This document shows positions 4,493-42,116 of a DNA stretch of 47,773 nt, piece after piece. Source of the stretch: a phage; assembly GCA_036604865.1 (NCBI GenBank), contig GCA_036604865.1_4856.1. One strand, 5' to 3'. Within the stretch, counting starts at the first letter, position 1. Each line of letters opens with the position of its first letter. Both the position numbers and the translations under genes were made by a program. A model generated the notes under the pieces. It did no database searches. It was not told the origin of the DNA and saw only the letters and a list, made by a program, of their open reading frames with translations.

Positions 4493-5323
4493 TCACGCCA
4501 GATAAGTATCATCCTCAAACCATGACACATATGCATTGATATTCTGCACCGAAGTATCCAGTGATGTTATGCGAAGCAAATACGTCGTATTTGGTGCCAT
4601 GATAATCTGCTCGCCGAGCTTCGCCTGCGAGTTACCCTGACCCTGATTCGATGCGTTGCCCTCACTGTACGTCGCCGCCACCGTCAGTTGCCCAATACTT
4701 GTGATCGTAGAGCCAGTCAGAAGCTGTGCCGTAACTGCCTGCGGCGTTATATCGTTTGGATTGTTAATCTCCGCCGCCGTACCGCCGGTGGCAACTGCGC
4801 CGCGATAAATTGACGCAACAACACCTTTCCCTGTATAACCAATGATGCGCTGGTTAAATATCACCTGTTTTGTTCCGGTGATAAAGATGCTGTCAAGGTT
4901 TGAGCTGCCAGCAACATCAGTTACTCTGCGCGATGCAGTGAATAGCTTTCCTTGCTTGTTAGCAAACTCTGCATAGGACTGCGCGACAACCTGACTTGAT
5001 GGTACTGATGTGGCAGATCGCCATACCAGGACTTTCAGGGATGCAATGCCAGCTGGTATTTGTGACTTAATCACCTTCAGTCGCAGCGCCACGCCATAAT
5101 AATTATTATTGTTGACGTCAATCCAGAAATCACCGGATGCAAACGGCGATACCATTACGGAAACGGAGCCGCTTGTTAATGGCTCATAGCCACCGGAAGA
5201 ATTTAGCGGCACAATTTGTACCTGCAATGCTGACCAGTCAGCTGACATGGTTTCGCTAAGCAAAACCTCTCCGTCATCCGGAGTTGCGTTTATTTCGTAC
5301 CTGACAGCCATAGAAACCCCCAA
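4493..5323 (-). CDS. putative virion structural protein
   Basis: 276-aa Ser/Thr/Gly/Val-rich ORF downstream of the capsid gene block; no catalytic motif. Confidence 0.45.
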   Translation of the reverse strand: MGVSMAVRYEINATPDDGEVLLSETMSADWSALQVQIVPLNSSGGYEPLTSGSVSVMVSPFASGDFWIDVNNNNYYGVALRLKVIKSQIPAGIASLKVLVWRSATSVPSSQVVAQSYAEFANKQGKLFTASRRVTDVAGSSNLDSIFITGTKQVIFNQRIIGYTGKGVVASIYRGAVATGGTAAEINNPNDITPQAVTAQLLTGSTITSIGQLTVAATYSEGNASNQGQGNSQAKLGEQIIMAPNTTYLLRITSLDTSVQNINAYVSWFEDDTYLA

Positions 5324-5348
5324 TAAAAAACCCGCATAATGCGGGTTC
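5321..5348 (-). terminator. rho-independent terminator on minus strand (cccgca-taa-tgcggg then T-run)
   Basis: Read on the minus strand the hairpin is followed by ttttttatt; lies between genes 5352-5549 and 4493-5323. Confidence 0.45.
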
Positions 5349-5351
5349 AGT

Positions 5352-5549
5352 TTACTCTGCTTTCTTTTTCTTTGTCGTCTTTTGTTGTGGGGTTGCTACT
5401 TCGAAAGACTTTTCCAGTTCTGGCATGACGCGCAGCTTTGACATCAGATGATCAGCAGGCTCCGTGATAACCTCGCCAAGCTGTAACTCACGAATCTTGC
5501 CTTTCTCTTTCACAAAGATTCCGCGTGCGATTACTTCGTATTTAGCCAT
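5352..5549 (-). CDS. hypothetical small protein with Lys-rich C-terminus
   Basis: 65-aa ORF in ORF track. Confidence 0.4.
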   Translation of the reverse strand: MAKYEVIARGIFVKEKGKIRELQLGEVITEPADHLMSKLRVMPELEKSFEVATPQQKTTKKKKAE

Positions 5550-23376: not shown

Positions 23377-23542
23377 TTGCAAAAGCCCTCGTTGAGCACA
23401 TGCACTTAATGTTATGCACGCCATTGTCAGGCACAACCTCAATGTAATTACCTATCTGCACCATCATGTAATGACATGTCTTCATGCTGTTCCAGTGGCG
23501 TTCCCACATGTTTTGCATTGCGTCGCTGATGTCGTTAAACAT
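23363..23542 (-). CDS. hypothetical small protein (59 aa)
   Basis: Not in ORF track; starts immediately after the stop of gene 23535-23855; MFNDISDAMQNMWERHWNSMKTCHYMM... Confidence 0.3.
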   Translation of the reverse strand: MFNDISDAMQNMWERHWNSMKTCHYMMVQIGNYIEVVPDNGVHNIKCMCSTRAFANANN

Positions 23543-23855
23543 AATGCTGCCACTCCCTTTTAACCCATGCTACGCGATTCTTGTTGGTGTGAATTGTTCC
23601 GTTAATGCTTTCCATACAGTATGAGTTATCTGCGTTATTAAACGGGTAATCACTGCTGAGTCCGGCCTTAATGAATTGCGACTTCATTAACTGCAGCGCC
23701 ATATCCCTTTCCTGGAATCTGCAGCCTTTGTTTGTAAGGTATAAACGTAAAGAACCGCAAAGCCCGATGCGACGACTAAATGGCTCACCCTCTGGTGCGC
23801 CAGCATCAATCCAGTCGGAATATGCTTTATAAAACTCAGCTAATTTATTAAACAT
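23535..23855 (-). CDS. hypothetical protein
   Basis: 106-aa ORF in the minus-strand early cluster. Confidence 0.45.
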   Translation of the reverse strand: MFNKLAEFYKAYSDWIDAGAPEGEPFSRRIGLCGSLRLYLTNKGCRFQERDMALQLMKSQFIKAGLSSDYPFNNADNSYCMESINGTIHTNKNRVAWVKREWQHYV

Positions 23856-23976
23856 AATGTAAAACTCCTGCGATAGCTGCTACCAGTGACAGAACATAAA
23901 CAGCAATGAAGATTTTAGCGCCAGTGGTGTATCGGCGTCGTTGGTGTTTAGTAATCATCACTATCATCCTCATCAT
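23848..23976 (-). CDS. hypothetical small membrane protein
   Basis: ORF track 23848-24087 overlaps the upstream gene; start trimmed to MMRMIVMITK...; C-terminal hydrophobic helix. Confidence 0.3.
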   Translation of the reverse strand: MMRMIVMITKHQRRRYTTGAKIFIAVYVLSLVAAIAGVLHYV

Positions 23977-24334
23977 TGTATTCGATAAACTTTCCAAGTC
24001 GCTGCAACTCTGCGCCAGCCATAAAGTAACCAAGCGACTCTGCTCGCTCTGAGTCGATCTTAAATTCAGAAAGAGGATAACGCTCATAGAATTTGTTAAT
24101 CAAAAACGCCTGGTCGAATTTTGTTGCGTCATACTCTTCGTCGTCATTCTCTCGCCCGAGATATGAGAGCGATGTGACTGCCGCTGCAGTGAACCTGTCA
24201 CTGCCAATCAAACTCTTCAGCACCTCGACATCTTCTTGCGATTTAATTCTGAACGTCAACTGAGCTATGCCAGACACTGATGATGCACCGCCTGCAGATA
24301 ATGCGTTGTAGTGATAAATATATCTATTGCTCAT
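23948..24334 (-). CDS. hypothetical protein with acidic C-terminus
   Basis: 128-aa ORF in ORF track. Confidence 0.45.
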   Translation of the reverse strand: MSNRYIYHYNALSAGGASSVSGIAQLTFRIKSQEDVEVLKSLIGSDRFTAAAVTSLSYLGRENDDEEYDATKFDQAFLINKFYERYPLSEFKIDSERAESLGYFMAGAELQRLGKFIEYNDEDDSDDY

Positions 24335-24397
24335 CCATACATCTCCACTAAAGCGCGCGCCCCATAGAGCGCACTGATAATCAATATGAACTGGTAG

Positions 24398-24700
24398 CTA
24401 TTCACTTTTAGCCAGGCTTTCGAACTTCTGAGTGGTTGTATCAAACTCAAGCAACTTAACCACGTCATCAAACAGGACATAATCGCCACCAGAATCTTCA
24501 GTCATATCAGCGCCACAATCCTGACCGCAAGAGTCACAGCCACCCATATCAAGCTCGTATCGCTTTAGTTTTGCGATATTTGATAAATTCAGTGCCAGTA
24601 CAGCAAGGTCATAAACCTCTTCGGCGGTATAACCTGCACCATGCCCATACATTTCAATGCGAGATATAATTTCTTCTACTCGTTGTTTTGTGATTGTCAC
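24398..24700 (-). CDS. hypothetical protein with Cys cluster
   Basis: 100 aa; GGCDSCGQDCG suggests a metal-binding knuckle. Confidence 0.45.
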   Translation of the reverse strand: MTITKQRVEEIISRIEMYGHGAGYTAEEVYDLAVLALNLSNIAKLKRYELDMGGCDSCGQDCGADMTEDSGGDYVLFDDVVKLLEFDTTTQKFESLAKSE

Positions 24701-33447: not shown

Positions 33448-34488
33448 ATGGGTATTCTTAATATTAAACCAGCAGAGCGTTCCGGTTCTCGCGTGGTCAT
33501 CGGTATCTCAGGTCAGTCTGGTAGCGGAAAAACATATAGCGCACTTAAGCTGGCGCGAGGCATGGTTGATTCACCAGAAGAAATCGGATTCCTTGACACT
33601 GAGAATGGTCGCGGTCGCCTGTACTCAAACATCCTTGATGGTAAATTCCTGCACGCTGACATGTATGCACCATTCAGCCCTGCACGTTACCGTCAGGCCA
33701 TTGAAGAATTTCAGGCTGCAGGAGTTAAGGTTCTCGTTATTGATTCAGGTTCACACGAATGGGAAGGGGAAGGCAGTTGCACGGAGATTGCTGAAAAGCC
33801 ACTGCTTAACGGAAAAAAGATGGCTGACTGGAAGCGCGCCAAAGCTGAACACAAGAAGTTCATGAACGCCATGCTGCAAAGCAATATGCATATCATTGTC
33901 TGTCTTCGCGCTCGCCAGAAAACTGACTTCGCAAACCCGAAGGAACCTGTATCACTTGGATTGCAGCCAGTGTGCGAGAAAGATTTCATGTTCGAGATGA
34001 CCGTGAGCATGATGATGCACGATGGAGGCAAAATTCAGGAGTTCACCAAACTACCAGAAGAACTACGCCCAATCTTCTTTGAGTCTGGTCGTGAAAGTGT
34101 TCGTCATGGATACATTGGCGAGGCTCACGGTCGCGGACTCATCAAATGGGTGGACTCTGGCGTTAAAGTTGACGAAGAGTTTGAATCATGGCGATCACGA
34201 CTTCAGCTTTCAGCCGCAAAAGGCATGGAAGGCTTGAAGGAAGAAGCAAAATCAATACCTGACAACCTGAAAGATAAGATTCGCGCAATCTGGCCTTCTC
34301 TGGCCGCTTCTGCTGCAGAATACGATCGCATTGAGTCTTTCATCAATGATGAGCAATTATCTCCTGTGGTAATAACTCCGCAGGATAAATTCAACCCTGC
34401 AAAACTGGCTAAACCACAACATCATCAGCCAGAACAGCAGGAAGAAACAAAAACCGAACATAAACCAACTCCAATTGAAGGATTTTAA
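33448..34488 (+). CDS. RecA-like recombination ATPase (Sak4-like)
   Basis: Walker A GISGQSGSGKT, Walker B LVIDS; ATG at 33448 after SD tgagg (ORF track 33439). Confidence 0.55.
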   Translation: MGILNIKPAERSGSRVVIGISGQSGSGKTYSALKLARGMVDSPEEIGFLDTENGRGRLYSNILDGKFLHADMYAPFSPARYRQAIEEFQAAGVKVLVIDSGSHEWEGEGSCTEIAEKPLLNGKKMADWKRAKAEHKKFMNAMLQSNMHIIVCLRARQKTDFANPKEPVSLGLQPVCEKDFMFEMTVSMMMHDGGKIQEFTKLPEELRPIFFESGRESVRHGYIGEAHGRGLIKWVDSGVKVDEEFESWRSRLQLSAAKGMEGLKEEAKSIPDNLKDKIRAIWPSLAASAAEYDRIESFINDEQLSPVVITPQDKFNPAKLAKPQHHQPEQQEETKTEHKPTPIEGF

Positions 34489-34491
34489 TAA

Positions 34492-34986
34492 ATGGCACGC
34501 GGCGTAAATAAAGTAATTATTGTCGGCACTCTCGGTAACGACCCTGAAGTTAAATATTCTGCATCAGGATCTGCAATTGCTAATCTTTCTGTTGCAACAT
34601 CTGAGCAGTGGAAAGATAAACAAACAGGAGAAAAGAAAGAACAGACTGAATGGCATCGCGTAGTCATCTTCGGGAAACTTGCAGAAGTTGCAGGAGAATA
34701 CCTTCGAAAAGGTTCGCAGGTTTACATCGAAGGACAACTTCGCACTCGTAAATGGTCTGACAGCAACGGCATTGACCGATATACAACGGAGATTGTCATT
34801 CCGCAGATGGATGGCGTAATGCAGATGCTTGGCGGTAAGCGTGATGATTCTGGTCAGCAACAACACCAGCAATCAGGACAACAACCGCAACGACAGCAAC
34901 GACAGCAACAGCAGCCACCAAAACAACAAATCCCACAAGGAGGCAATGAGCCTCCGATGGACTTCGACGATTCAATACCATTCTGA
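34492..34986 (+). CDS. ssb: single-stranded DNA-binding protein
   Basis: OB-fold N-terminus [16 protein letters not shown]...[14 protein letters not shown], Gln-rich linker, acidic tail DFDDSIPF. Confidence 0.9.
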
Positions 34987-35236
34987 TGATAAAACTAACC
35001 CCGCCGAAGCGGGGTTGTGTCACTTACTTACCCGCAATTCCCACCAGTAAAGTTTCGAGGGATTCAATCGTTACTCCAGTCTGACTAGAAGCAGCTCACC
35101 TGATTCATTCATAATATTACCGTAGTTGTAAAGTTAGGAACCCAAATAGGGTCGTATCATAAGATGACTCTTAGATAATACTTAGCATGATGGAGTACAC
35201 CCAGACATAGTGTCTGGTATTACCTGCGAGGTAACT

Positions 35237-35812
35237 ATGTCTATCAAAGATATTTTCCAGAGTGGTAAGGATGTTGTATGTAAAATGAAGGGTGGTTTGC
35301 TGGTCGTGGGGAGTTATGGGGAACGAATAGTTTCTGCTAATAGCATCTCAGAGATTCCTCCAGAACTTCTACCTTTCCCGCCAACAGAGTTAGAAGATAC
35401 TTTCCTCCTGGATTTGTATGCATGGACGGGGAACCAAGCAGTAAATGATCAGTCTTGGTTCAATTACTTTTCATTACCAGGGATATCTAAATCACCTGGG
35501 GGTACAGCAGCTTTAACTATTGAGGAGGGTAATCTTAAGTTCCCTGTTAGAACCAGGAACACCCAAGTGATGTTCAGTGTTCGTATCTCAGGAACTATTG
35601 CAGGAGGTGCTGGTACAGCAAGAGAATGGAGAACACAAGCAAGACGAACCAATGGAACTACGGTAGTGGGTTCAGGCGCTAGTGTTAAAGTACAGGGTAC
35701 GGACATTGCTAACAGAGATAACGTATTAGCTACTTACACACTTGGTTCAACGGACCATTTCATGGTAGATGGTATTCAGTTAGGTATGTTTATAATATCT
35801 CTGGGTAAGTAA
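35237..35812 (+). CDS. hypothetical protein
   Basis: ORF track 35210-35812; likely start MSIKDIFQ at 35237; convergent with the tailspike gene; no motif recognised. Confidence 0.45.
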   Translation: MSIKDIFQSGKDVVCKMKGGLLVVGSYGERIVSANSISEIPPELLPFPPTELEDTFLLDLYAWTGNQAVNDQSWFNYFSLPGISKSPGGTAALTIEEGNLKFPVRTRNTQVMFSVRISGTIAGGAGTAREWRTQARRTNGTTVVGSGASVKVQGTDIANRDNVLATYTLGSTDHFMVDGIQLGMFIISLGK

Positions 35813-35865
35813 TCACCTTAACAGCAGTATCTATTAGGGTAATGCAAACGGTAAACGCTATATAA

Positions 35866-35900
35866 GAAAAGGCCCCGTGAGGGGCCTTAGTTATTTTTAT
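35866..35900. terminator. bidirectional rho-independent terminator (aggcccc-gtga-ggggcct, T-runs on both sides)
   Basis: Hairpin 35870-35887 between convergent genes ending at 35812 and 35903. Confidence 0.55.
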
Positions 35901-35902
35901 TT

Positions 35903-38275
35903 CTACCCCCTATCCGCCCACCAACCAGTACTCGTTCTGTAAAGCATAATAGCCGCCGCCGAAAGCGTCTTATTAACGCGGATGCGTCTTTCAATAGGTA
36001 TTGATGTACTCTCCTGCAAGGTAATCGGCTGAGAAGACGTAGTGCTGACTAATAATACTTTATCCGCATTACCCGTTATCTCATTCAGGGTCATGCTAGC
36101 GCTTAGATAATAAATACCTGCGTTGTTTGAGTTTATGAATGTTGTTGGAGTTGAAACGGTTAGTGTCACTGCCGAGGTTGAGAGCTGCACTGCCGAGCCG
36201 AAAATGTTGGCTTTGAGCGTACGAGAATCTGAATTCCAGAACAGACTCAATTGAGGGATGTCATAAGAAGCACATAAAGCATTTTCCTGTGAACCAATAA
36301 CCGACGGTAACTTCCCCCAACTTTTTGCATAGTTACTAACGCCAGAAAATGCCCCGATAGCCCGGTGTTTAACCCTCAAGAAATTGAAAGTGTTTTGGCC
36401 TTCTGTGATAGACATAAAACCACCAGAACCAACTGGGGTTATTGTGCTGTACCCCGTATAGAGTCCTGGGTCATCAAACATAGTTCCTGTGAACTCAGTC
36501 CAGGAAACCCCGTTATTAGTTGAAACCCATGTCCTTAAATCATTTCTGAATCGATAGTCGTGGTTGTCACCTGTCGGCGCAGTTACGAGCAACACATCAC
36601 GGGAGTCACCATTAGACATTGATGAATATAAGCACATGCCCGCTTTACAATTCGTGGTGTCAATAGATGACTGATAAATCCAATTTACGGAGTCAAAACT
36701 TCGATAGACACGCTGCCGCCCTTTTGTGACGCTGGTGTCGTCGTTATAATAATCACGGATTAGCGCCAGAAGAGATCCATCCCCAAGCTGGGTTATCTGT
36801 AGTTCACCAGCCCCGTTAGACCCTTCTGTCCCACCAGCCAGGATGAGTTGACGATTGTATTTGAAAGTCCCATCGGCGTTTTCAGAAACACGGATATAGC
36901 CGTGATAGAAAACGCCACCATTGAGAATCCAGGCATAAGGGACAAGAAGGTCTCCGTCTCCGGTTACGCAGAGAGGAGATGGAGAGAACCAGGCAGAAGT
37001 AGCATTTTCGGGCTTAACTGAGGTGGTAATATTTACCGGGTTAGTCCATTGGGTGCCGTAGTTATCGCTATAGGTCATCCAGTTCTGGAAAGTAGTGTTA
37101 GGGTCGAAACCAGTAGAGCCATGTCCTACCCCTACCCTGCCGCGCGCGGTGGTATAGAAACACCAGATGCGTCCCCTTTTGTGGTCAAAAGCAAAGCATG
37201 GTTCTGCTGCTTGCTGCTCCCCTTCTGTTGAAATAACAATTGGCGGGTCAAAAGATAGATTGTTGTTTGAGTTTCTAATCTCTATTCTTGACGTTTGGTT
37301 CGCATCTTGACCGGGGTCAAAAGATGTACCAACCAGCACTGTGTACATAAGAAAAACGCGGTTGTTAAATGAGGTGTGAACCATCGACGGCTCTCGATAG
37401 AACTCACCAGTATTTGCGGTGATAGTAGTGTAATTATCTGAATACAAGATGCCACCAGTATTTTTATTAATATATACTGGAAGATTTTTTTGGACTGAGT
37501 CCTGCCCGACGGGTAGAATTTTTACCGTGCCTGACCCGGTGATAGTGACTTCACCATCTGTGGTGTATGTCGGGGCGAGATTTGACTCAATTTTATAAGT
37601 ACCAGTGGGGATTAGAGCCCCGCCAGCCTGGATAAATGCTGCGGTAGAATCGGCAACGCCTGTCCTGTCAGCCCCAAAATCGATCACATTAAACGGTGAG
37701 GTAGCCTTTATCGCTGACATGGCAGAAGGTGAGTCGATCAATATCCGCCACTGCGTACCGCCACCAGTAGTTACCGTATCCCCTGCCTTAAGGGTTACCG
37801 TCTGACCGCTAGATGTAGTCCCGGTAAAAATGTCACCTACGGTATTGAATGTTAATCCAGAAAGAGAACCCAGCTGTCCACGTAATGCTGCATCACCAAC
37901 ACCAATCCACGCACCAACACCAATACCACCAGATGTTTCTGGAGTTGATCCGGCAGGAACAGTTTTAGGAAACTCACCGTCCCAGCGGTAATACTCTCCA
38001 TTGGTTTCATCCTGCAAAACATGATTTGGAAGAGTTAATTCATTGTTAGGAAGTGGCGCGCCAAGCTGAAAGCTCTTTAAAGTGATATATCCATAGTTGC
38101 GGATAGCTTCTTCTGCTGTGTACTGAAATCCAGCAATTGTCCAGCGGCGAACTCCGAACCTGTCGGTGTAGTAATGCGCGTCAGATGTCACTACCTCGTC
38201 GATTTTCCCTGCATTAAATTTAAGGTCGCGCGGGTCTTCTGATGGGATTGGTTTATTGGTTGGTGTGGTAGCCAT
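35903..38275 (-). CDS. tailspike / tail fibre protein with Asp-box (BNR) repeats, probable glycan hydrolase
   Basis: 790 aa, last gene of the tail operon; degenerate Asp boxes YSDNYGTQW and STNNGVSWT; SD aggag before ATG. Confidence 0.6.
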   Translation of the reverse strand: MATTPTNKPIPSEDPRDLKFNAGKIDEVVTSDAHYYTDRFGVRRWTIAGFQYTAEEAIRNYGYITLKSFQLGAPLPNNELTLPNHVLQDETNGEYYRWDGEFPKTVPAGSTPETSGGIGVGAWIGVGDAALRGQLGSLSGLTFNTVGDIFTGTTSSGQTVTLKAGDTVTTGGGTQWRILIDSPSAMSAIKATSPFNVIDFGADRTGVADSTAAFIQAGGALIPTGTYKIESNLAPTYTTDGEVTITGSGTVKILPVGQDSVQKNLPVYINKNTGGILYSDNYTTITANTGEFYREPSMVHTSFNNRVFLMYTVLVGTSFDPGQDANQTSRIEIRNSNNNLSFDPPIVISTEGEQQAAEPCFAFDHKRGRIWCFYTTARGRVGVGHGSTGFDPNTTFQNWMTYSDNYGTQWTNPVNITTSVKPENATSAWFSPSPLCVTGDGDLLVPYAWILNGGVFYHGYIRVSENADGTFKYNRQLILAGGTEGSNGAGELQITQLGDGSLLALIRDYYNDDTSVTKGRQRVYRSFDSVNWIYQSSIDTTNCKAGMCLYSSMSNGDSRDVLLVTAPTGDNHDYRFRNDLRTWVSTNNGVSWTEFTGTMFDDPGLYTGYSTITPVGSGGFMSITEGQNTFNFLRVKHRAIGAFSGVSNYAKSWGKLPSVIGSQENALCASYDIPQLSLFWNSDSRTLKANIFGSAVQLSTSAVTLTVSTPTTFINSNNAGIYYLSASMTLNEITGNADKVLLVSTTSSQPITLQESTSIPIERRIRVNKTLSAAAIMLYRTSTGWWADRG

Positions 38276-38314
38276 TATAATAAATGCTCCTTTGTGAATT
38301 TGATGTATATTGTA

Positions 38315-42115
<3,801 letters not shown>

Positions 42116-42116
<1 letters not shown>

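Follow-up and report, generated by a model that had tools for sequence, protein, structure and literature searches.

To our knowledge, the GH58 endosialidases, which are specific for polysialic acid, are the only phage sialidases characterised so far, and every GH33 enzyme characterised to date acts in exo mode or as a trans-sialidase. The GH58 tailspikes (e.g., endoNF of K1F, gp143 of phi92 (4HIZ), and that of CUS-3) bear a six-bladed propeller of the sialidase type on anchors that are exchanged modularly, and end in an intramolecular Peptidase_S74 chaperone, which is cleaved after trimerisation. The K1 prophage CUS-3 also encodes NeuO, an O-acetyltransferase whose modification of the sialic-acid polymer increases resistance to phage (PMC3046976, PMC13001214).

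By displaying sialic acid in capsules and O-antigens, bacteria mimic their host. A review of six sialylated O-antigens of enterobacteria places Neu5Ac inside the main chain in each case, with substitution at C4 or C7 (PMC9631793). Specificity for a Neu5Ac-containing O-antigen was demonstrated experimentally for the tail spike of a P22-like prophage of E. coli O104:H4 (EGR74047 / WP_000129924.1; PMC3303846). The O-antigen is also the primary receptor for the tailspikes of Shigella phage Sf11 and of Skatevirus (PMC12724387; PMC11990801). In Sf11, the tailspike gp13 has an Sf6/P22-like receptor domain, its three N-terminal helices are bound by the adaptor helix of gp17, and the gp14-type hub is termed 'baseplate hub 2' (PMC12724387).

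The tailspike described here, encoded in a 47,773-nucleotide stretch of phage DNA (hereafter, the window; GCA_036604865.1), belongs to a known kind of protein but is a variant that has received little study, in which an Sf11-type anchor carries a sialidase propeller instead of the Sf6/P22-like domain. No activity, host-range, or structural experiment on this tailspike or any close relative was found in the literature.

Gene context and mosaic architecture

The gene closes the tail module, directly downstream of the tail hub gene; the ORF list agrees on this point with the sequence-only reading, which had described a terminal tail gene of 790 aa. The ATG start is backed by the homology of residues 1-139 to the Sf11 tailspike gp13 (N-terminus MATVPTNNPIPSEDPRD). 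The identical protein at NCBI is MEF4813186.1, 'hypothetical protein U9725_21015 [Escherichia coli]'. Residues are given in true numbering; the alignment and the AlphaFold model lacked Met1, so that their numbers equal the true ones minus 1. The module and the non-catalytic parts of the protein comprise:

35903..38275, minus strand: tailspike gene, 790 aa plus stop codon (ORF list; PHROG tail fiber/spike families)
38315..40801, minus strand: tail hub/tip protein, 828 aa, called 'J-like' in the earlier reading (phmmer to Sf11 gp14 (9occ_E), 1848 bits, residues 1-827; phrog_469 'tail protein', E 8e-254)
41643..42116, minus strand: distal tail protein of 157 aa (phmmer E 2.7e-100 against Sf11 gp17 (9occ_C), residues 1-155)
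37859..38275, minus strand: virion-anchor domain, residues 1-139 (phmmer to Sf11 tailspike gp13 (9occ_G), E 1.6e-59)
37508..37855, minus strand: neck domain, residues 141-256 (AlphaFold pLDDT 82-93)
35906..36313, minus strand: C-terminal beta domain, residues 655-790, ending in RTSTGWWADRG
35020..37880, no strand assigned: cassette swapped relative to Escherichia phage 6947 (tailspike residues ~132-790 and ORF 35210-35812)

The anchor is near-identical to that of Sf11 gp13 (PDB 9OCC), contains a match to Pfam Tail_spike_N (PF18668, residues 84-128, E 1.3e-18), and shares 76-80% identity with the tailspike N-termini of swi2, C1, DS8, Sa179lw, and IME207. Judged by homology, the anchor, the hub next door, and the cognate distal tail protein are a tailspike set of the Sf11/Skatevirus type, although the distal tail protein lacks the 300-aa C-terminal appendage of gp17. 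The tailspike N-terminus is predicted to dock on this distal tail protein. By analogy with the cryo-EM structure of Sf11 (PMC12724387), the anchor would form a homotrimer docked on this protein, with six trimers per tail tip; the model computed here is that of a monomer. Over 64-72% of a 17.8-kb query, the genome is 89-91% nucleotide-identical to phages 6947, VSt472 (genus Skatevirus), and Bas77-81. The source is probably a virulent siphophage of E. coli of the Skatevirus/Sf11 type.

When window positions 34000-42000 were compared by blastn with phage 6947, the closest genome, identity reached 87% at 37881-42000 and 89-92% at 34000-35019, with no match in between; DNA homology stops at 37881. 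The tailspike is a mosaic of its own lineage's anchor (residues 1-139) and a swapped-in module (residues ~132-790), the latter also being found on P22-like, T7-like, and myovirus-type anchors. Neck, GH33-type propeller (281-641), and small C-terminal beta domain would together constitute a horizontally acquired receptor module. The neck holds 'NVIDFGADRTGVADSTAAF', a stretch with weak similarity to the N-terminal cap seen in beta-helices of the pectate-lyase type, gives a weak profile match to the alpha-1,3-glucanase 7c7d (E 9e-5; Pfam PF12708, E 0.61), and co-occurs with the propeller in most homologues. The C-terminal 136 aa are predicted to fold into a small beta domain without a strong match, possibly serving trimerisation or extra glycan binding. 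A Pfam search of the tailspike for the chaperone domain of the GH58 tailspikes (PF13884/Peptidase_S74) returned no match at E <= 1.

The propeller and its predicted active site

The central domain is a six-bladed beta-propeller of the GH33 superfamily, as the sequence-only reading had proposed in naming a sialidase-type propeller. Its catalytic residues were mapped to those of Salmonella typhimurium NanH in a MAFFT alignment of 160 sequences:

36353..37435, minus strand: six-bladed GH33-type sialidase beta-propeller, residues 281-641
37388..37399, minus strand: Y293-R294-E295-P296, a variant of (F/Y)RIP, R294 being the first Arg of the triad (aligns with NanH F36-R37-I38-P39)
37316..37318, minus strand: D320, predicted general acid/base (aligned to NanH D62 and conserved in all family members that reach this site)
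37046..37069, minus strand: Asp box SDNYGTQW, residues 403-410 (matches an Asp box in 6mnj/4fj6/9db6)
36803..36805, minus strand: E491, the Glu predicted to pair with the Tyr nucleophile (counterpart of NanH E231 and of the Glu in Bacteroidales sialidases; invariant in the family)
36755..36757, minus strand: R507, second triad Arg (counterpart of NanH R246; aligned to 'NMRD' in 6mnj/4fj6)
36545..36547, minus strand: R577, third triad Arg (counterpart of NanH R309; aligned to 'GRRDITIKAS' in 6mnj)
36500..36523, minus strand: Asp box STNNGVSW, residues 585-592 (matches 'SLDGGVTW' in 6mnj)
36449..36451, minus strand: Y609 in 'TGYS', predicted catalytic nucleophile (aligns with NanH Y342 ('AGYSCL') and 'GYS' of all Bacteroidales sialidases)
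36401..36403, minus strand: E625, the Glu stabilising the first Arg (aligns with NanH E361; invariant in the family)

The Arg triad is invariant in the close family, whose consensus at the (F/Y)RIP site is YR[EL]P. By residue conservation, the propeller has the full active site of a retaining sialidase, and enzymatic activity would be expected. In the mechanism proposed, R294, R507, and R577 would hold the sugar carboxylate, while Y609, activated by E491, would act as the nucleophile, D320 as the acid/base, and E625 as the brace of R294.

The two degenerate Asp boxes that had been pointed out earlier as the minimum (YSDNYGTQW, 402-410, and STNNGVSWT, 585-593) were both located. The pattern S-x-[DN]-x-G-x-x-W occurs twice in the tailspike; 20,000 shuffles that preserved composition contained it 0.019 times on average (P = 5e-5). 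Both occurrences align with true Asp boxes in GH33 sialidases of known structure ('tySDtyGttWs' with 'arSdDdGrTWS', 'iStdngetW' with 'aSlDgGvTW'). The query scores 21.4 bits on Pfam BNR_3, under the curated cutoff of 27, and has no NCBIfam match; many close homologues have precomputed PF13088 (BNR_2) matches and are named 'exo-alpha-sialidase' or 'sialidase family protein' by PGAP. Two more degenerate Asp-box-like motifs, NSNNNLSF (335-342) and SFDSVNW (526-532), were seen by eye.

The bacterial GH33 exo-alpha-sialidases (e.g., NanH 2SIL/1DIL, Micromonospora 1EUR, Bacteroidales 6MNJ/4FJ6/4BBW) are only 15-22% identical to the propeller. Moreover, the domain lies here within a 790-aa phage protein, between an N-terminal anchor and neck on one side and a C-terminal beta domain on the other. 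YREP stands where NanH has FRIP, and its substrate is presumed to be a bacterial O-polysaccharide in which Neu5Ac is probably internal, rather than terminal host sialoglycans. As Neu5Ac is internal in the O-antigens reviewed, depolymerisation would need an opened pocket. A distant homologue, the spike of a 157-kb myovirus, was seen in virions by mass spectrometry (PMC10892097); it is 26-28% identical over residues 292-783, shares the propeller and C-terminal domain, and has all seven catalytic residues, but differs by its N-terminus and its branched four-spike apparatus. No reported receptor or activity was found for this spike.

O131 association and candidate receptors

A survey of 5,426 complete genomes of E. 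coli located the sialidase module in only four, all of which belong to the 13 with the O131 O-antigen cluster; the module comes in two variants, which sit in two different prophages. The O131 O-antigen contains Neu5Ac. The O131 strains encountered include AR_0118, AR_0119, AR_0128, FDAARGOS_1373, and Ecol_224. The four lysogens have a single neuB locus, located in the O-antigen cluster, with no second neuB of the K1 type, and the searches showed no close-family member in genomes whose O-type lacks sialic acid. Beyond the complete genomes, a second copy of the query lies on a 48,621-bp contig, many draft E. coli genomes carry 773/774-aa variants (one cluster counting at least 16 sequences), and there are lysogens in Mixta calida, Aeromonas caviae, and Enterobacter hormaechei. 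As the prophage relatives in complete E. coli genomes are found only in strains with a sialic-acid O-antigen, the tailspike most probably targets and cleaves a sialylated O-antigen, rather than the K1 capsule. We consider it probable that its function is to bind a Neu5Ac-containing O-antigen and hydrolyse its ketosidic linkages, O131 or a related structure being the candidate substrate, as judged from relatives 52-59% identical to the query and not from this phage itself. Such hydrolysis would let the tail tip reach the outer membrane. The O131 genomes are perhaps partly clonal, and another clone-specific surface structure may, therefore, lie behind the association. We infer the substrate of this variant, the endo or exo mode of cleavage, and the trimer geometry.

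The identity to the O131-associated variants is modest, and the closest relative of the query (63-64%) comes from Mixta calida. The enzyme might, thus, be an active glycosidase that attacks capsules or O-antigens at another 2-keto-3-deoxy sugar acid, such as Kdo, KDN, legionaminic acid, or pseudaminic acid, in which case the O131 link of the relatives would not carry over to this variant; KDNases use the same Arg triad and Tyr/Glu/Asp machinery, and are among the top fold matches (7p1v, 4m4n). Nevertheless, the two O131 variants are as divergent from each other (56% identity) as the query is from them, tailspike receptor domains that share a serogroup specificity are reported to differ by as much as 70% (PMC10408124), and the close family was met only with sialylated O-types, which makes this reading unlikely, if worth keeping in mind.

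A lectin-like propeller, binding a sialylated glycan without hydrolysis, is quite improbable. Some viral attachment proteins with a sialidase fold are catalytically dead (those of henipaviruses are among the weaker fold matches), and a tailspike-like side branch lacks the first Arg and the bracing Glu. That branch, however, shows that such residues drift once constraints change, whereas the seven catalytic and bracing residues are kept across the close family at ~50% overall identity, which argues for selection on catalysis. The capsule part of the sequence-only reading, an endosialidase-type tailspike degrading the alpha-2,8 polysialic acid capsule K1 (or K92) of a K1-type encapsulated E. coli, is, unlike the propeller, not supported and very improbable, since the relatives' lysogens are O131 with their only neuB in the O-antigen cluster, the Pfam search gave no S74 chaperone, and the catalytic domain does not have its closest sequence or structural similarity in the endoNF/phi92-type GH58 domain.

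The acyltransferase-linked cassette and its implications

Under the preferred reading, cleavage of a sialylated O-antigen, the family may tentatively be regarded as the first GH33 tailspike depolymerases of sialylated O-antigens (e.g., O131), cutting at internal Neu5Ac; in temperate phages, the module and its cognate AT3 O-acyltransferase would then make up an attack-and-protect cassette. This suggestion, which we hold with less than even confidence, would provide the O-antigen counterpart of the endosialidase/NeuO pair of CUS-3, and the acyltransferase linked to the module hints at a way for prophages to modify the O-antigen. The O104-specific spike also combines a Neu5Ac O-antigen target with an adjoining AT3-family acyltransferase gene. 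Its acyltransferase is, however, a 636-aa AT3-SGNH fusion on the opposite strand, whereas that of the sialidase-module cassette is AT3-only (347-365 aa), and its receptor domain is unrelated to the sialidase module (hhalign probability 0.1%; no BNR/sialidase Pfam match). A sialylated receptor, therefore, does not require a sialidase fold.

If confirmed, a GH33-type tailspike for sialylated O-antigen would represent a second, mechanistically different class of phage sialidase, show that an enzyme family trimming terminal sialic acids was adapted to a polymer, and offer a reagent to detect or strip the sialylated LPS of O131 and perhaps other Neu5Ac O-types. The strict O131 association of the relatives constitutes a concrete host prediction for a phage without a recorded host serotype.

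The tailspike gene and its phage background

The window comprises an entire contig of 47,773 bp, and the ORF predicted for the tailspike is real. Its product is deposited under E. coli as a 'hypothetical protein' (MEF4813186.1), and a near-identical copy is found on a second contig (48,621 bp). The tail genes considered here are:

35903-38275 (-), tailspike gene, ORF of 790 aa
38315-40801, upstream of the tailspike gene, tail hub of 828 aa, equivalent to gp14 ('baseplate hub 2') of Shigella siphophage Sf11 (1848 bits)
41643-42116 (-), distal tail protein of 157 aa, matching the first 155 residues of Sf11 gp17 (E 2.7e-100)

The tail and replication region shares 89-91% nucleotide identity with Escherichia phage 6947, HC6, Salmonella virus VSt472 and the BASEL phages Bas77-81, over 64-72% of a 17.8-kb query. 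VSt472 is classified in the genus Skatevirus, and Bas77-81 fall in a cluster made mainly of this genus (PMC11990801). Placement of the window phage in the Guernseyvirinae was rejected. Skatevirus isolates are reported to depend on the O-antigen via an enzymatic tailspike, the gene of which lies just downstream of that for the J-like protein (PMC11990801).

The tail proteins are near-identical to those of Sf11, for which a cryo-EM tail structure is available (PDB 9OCC). In Sf11, whose primary receptor is the O-antigen, six trimers of the tailspike gp13 dock via their N-terminal helices onto the gp17 adaptor helix (PMC12724387). While Sf11 gp17 counts 457 aa, the distal tail proteins of the window and of VSt472 count 157 aa and match residues 1-155 only; that of the window is, therefore, devoid of the large Sf11 C-terminal appendage. 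It retains most of the N-terminal gp17 region built into the cryo-EM map (residues 3-165).

Tailspike residues 1-139 match Sf11 gp13 (E 1.6e-59) and Pfam Tail_spike_N (E 1.3e-18), with 76-80% identity to many related phage spikes, and are, judging from these matches, a lineage-specific virion anchor. Beyond it, DNA homology to phage 6947, the closest genome, ends at 37881 (codon ~131) and picks up again at ~35019, so that a cassette spanning 35020-37880 has been exchanged. In the AlphaFold model (mean pLDDT 73.7), confidence is good for a neck (residues 141-256), a large beta domain folded as a sialidase propeller (281-641) and a C-terminal beta domain (~655-790), together referred to below as the module (residues ~132-790). 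It is poor for the anchor, as would be expected of a trimeric helical bundle predicted as a monomer, with a mixed alignment as input. The neck weakly resembles a beta-helix cap, and no confident fold match was found for the C-terminal domain.

The cassette also holds a 200-aa ORF (35210-35812, +), convergent to the tailspike gene, which belongs to phrog_17779 (unknown function) and has no Pfam match. This ORF is absent at the equivalent position in phage 6947 and VSt472. An 88-93% identical protein, named 'tail needle knob' in some records, is carried by the podophages UE-S5a, UE-M3, pSb-1 and Bp4 (72-76 kb), which we take to be N4-like Gamaleyavirus phages; the ORF may have been transferred together with the receptor module. 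In the SSB gene region (34586-35019), a 437-bp stretch matches, inverted and at 88% identity, positions 4964-5388 of the phage 6947 record (L001), inside its annotated 860-aa tailspike CDS; the SSB gene of 6947 gives a further match, as expected. The inverted match suggests a duplication in that record, or a chimeric assembly or annotation.

Predicted active site of the propeller

The pattern S-x-[DN]-x-G-x-x-W occurs twice in the tailspike; 20,000 shuffles of its sequence gave 0.019 occurrences on average (P = 5e-5). Both motifs cited in the sequence-only reading were recovered, SDNYGTQW at residues 403-410 and STNNGVSW at 585-592, and the true Asp boxes of solved sialidases align with them. 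Residue numbers are true ones; alignment A1 and the full-length AlphaFold model lack Met1 and run one lower.

An exhaustive HMM search gathered 790 matches at E <= 1e-3, of which the close family represents only three 50%-identity clusters, and 159 of these relatives were aligned with the Salmonella typhimurium sialidase NanH (sequence 100% identical to PDB 2SIL/1DIL). NanH R37, D62, E231, R246, R309, Y342 and E361, which define the GH33 active site, share alignment columns with tailspike R294, D320, E491, R507, R577, Y609 and E625, respectively. R294 lies within Y-R-E-P, a variant of the sialidase RIP motif (family consensus YR[EL]P), and the spacing from the first Arg to the Asp is 26 residues (R294-D320) vs 25 in NanH (R37-D62). 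All seven residues are kept in every close relative aligned, with the N-truncated P0016 lacking the first Arg only.

KDNases share this catalytic machinery and the closest relative originates from Mixta calida, so a different ulosonic acid as the substrate of the window variant deserves mention, unlikely as it is. That the propeller only binds its glycan, without cleavage, is highly improbable: the catalytic residues are invariant despite module identities of only 48-63%, which argues for a working retaining sialidase rather than a binding-only domain. Such residues do change under altered constraints, as seen in a side branch of longer tailspike-like relatives with the sialidase fold (P0023, P0025-P0027, P0030, P0034, P0035, P0040, P0041) and in the Sashavirus BDX09P1 homologue (L002:2830-4962). 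Here, Tyr, Phe or Gln takes the place of the first Arg, and Asp, His or Asn that of the bracing Glu, while D/E/R/R/Y are kept in the branch, which hints at an altered substrate or a loss of carboxylate binding.

In fold and active site alike, the propeller agrees with GH33 on every testable sequence and structure criterion, with a Pfam score of its own slightly below the curated threshold. Automatic annotation already names homologues 'exo-alpha-sialidase' or 'sialidase family protein', and the tailspike belongs with the sialidase-fold, glycan-degrading tailspikes, without being categorically new. No study of the biochemistry, structure or host range of a GH33-type phage tailspike turned up in the searchable literature, nor any earlier link of such a spike to sialylated O-antigens. 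Its interest is moderate, and would be greater if an endo-acting O-antigen sialidase activity were shown.

O-antigen type of the lysogens

Since a prophage tailspike normally fits the surface glycan of the lysogen that carries it, the lysogens were typed. Out of 5,426 complete genomes of E. coli, four contain the module. PT62 and LP5-1, which seem to be one and the same pigeon strain, share one variant in a prophage adjoining yfgI, while EC7518 and AR_0118 carry another, only 56% identical, in a P22-like prophage adjoining yfdC/mlaA. All four have the O131 O-antigen cluster, which comprises genes for a NeuD-like acetyltransferase, neuB, a CMP-sugar cytidylyltransferase, neuC, O131 wzx, a GT52 glycosyltransferase and O131 wzy (assignments from PMC4384082). 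As no more than 13 of the complete genomes have O131 wzy, the chance of such a coincidence is 2e-11 for the four genomes, 8e-9 with PT62 and LP5-1 counted once (three strains), and 6e-6 with two independent prophage acquisitions. According to Perepelov et al. (2016), as cited in PMC7685785, N-acetylneuraminic acid is a component of the O131 O-antigen.

With O131 neuB as the query, a sensitive search detected some neuB in 455 genomes, at >=99% identity in 13 (the O131 set), 80-90% in 53 (including O104:H4) and 60-80% in 389 (presumably K1 and similar). The module was found in none of the other 442 neuB-positive genomes. P22-type head-binding spike genes were detected in 1,193 genomes, and scarcity of such prophages does not, therefore, explain why the module is rare. 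Each O131 genome has exactly one neuB locus, and the lysogens are thus without a K1-type neu cluster.

The sequence-only reading had likened the spike to endosialidases for polysialic acid capsules, and suggested a capsulated host, for example of K1 type. Little speaks for this proposal. The propeller falls outside the GH58 endosialidases, and a K1/K92 endosialidase is most improbable given the fold ranking, the lack of an S74 chaperone in the tailspike, its GH33 nucleophile pair, and lysogens of relatives that are O131 only, with a single neuB.

Lesions were observed in O-antigen genes of two lysogens. In PT62 (L006:15150-17559 and 23482-24459), wzy is truncated beside a copy of ISVsa5 and an internal stop interrupts wzzB; in EC7518 (L010:10925-13240), ISVsa5 splits wzzB. 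They might reflect selection by O-antigen-targeting phages, or be incidental.

Proposed mechanism and mobility of the module

By analogy with Sf11, six trimeric spikes would be anchored on the distal tail protein by their conserved N-terminus. Their GH33-type active sites would bind the Neu5Ac of a sialylated O-antigen through the Arg triad and cut the ketosidic bond by a retaining Tyr609/Glu491/Asp320 mechanism, the particle thereby working its way through the O-antigen layer to bring the gp14-type hub to the outer membrane. The substrate of the window variant, 52-59% identical to the O131-associated prophage relatives, is deduced from their hosts. Each repeat of the six sialylated enterobacterial O-antigens studied has a main-chain Neu5Ac with a substituent at C4 or C7, and in five of these antigens Neu5Ac also occupies the non-reducing terminus (PMC9631793), so that endo and exo cleavage are both conceivable. 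The experimentally O104-specific tail spike (659 aa) is unrelated to the module (hhalign probability 0.1%). Not every spike for a sialylated O-antigen, therefore, has the sialidase fold, and two such antigens would be recognised by spikes of unrelated fold.

The module is mobile. Close homologues (named members from E. coli, Mixta calida and Aeromonas caviae) display the same neck, propeller and C-terminal unit behind varied virion anchors, including Tail_spike_N, the P22 head-binding domain and the T7 tail-fibre N-terminus. Gene context places them in P22-like prophages, in another prophage of E. coli, and in a temperate phage whose tail genes are of the contractile type. More distant sialidase-fold spikes occur in Enterobacter hormaechei and Alcaligenes faecalis prophages and in Kuttervirus myophages; the Kuttervirus homologue, subtype TSP1-20 (ECML-4 gp189), has retained the full set of seven catalytic residues.

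Immediately downstream of the spike gene, three of four temperate contexts carry an Acyl_transf_3 gene (347-365 aa), on three different temperate phage backbones:

L005:9943-11031, Acyl_transf_3 gene
L007:12472-13515, Acyl_transf_3 gene
L009:12553-13650, Acyl_transf_3 gene

The three copies are 51-56% identical, a divergence about that of the spikes, and neither the P0011-type P22-like prophage (L003/L004) nor the virulent window phage has the gene. The arrangement suggests a cassette of tailspike and O-acyltransferase in the temperate relatives. Prophage acyltransferases adjoining tailspike genes typically O-acetylate the O-antigen recognised by the spike. An acyltransferase gene likewise lies beside the tail spike gene in the O104:H4 prophage (PMC3303846), although in O104:H4 FDAARGOS_349 (L014:4001-7961) it encodes a 636-aa AT3-SGNH fusion on the opposite strand. 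In the K1 prophage CUS-3, the polysialic-acid O-acetyltransferase NeuO raises phage resistance (PMC3046976, PMC13001214).
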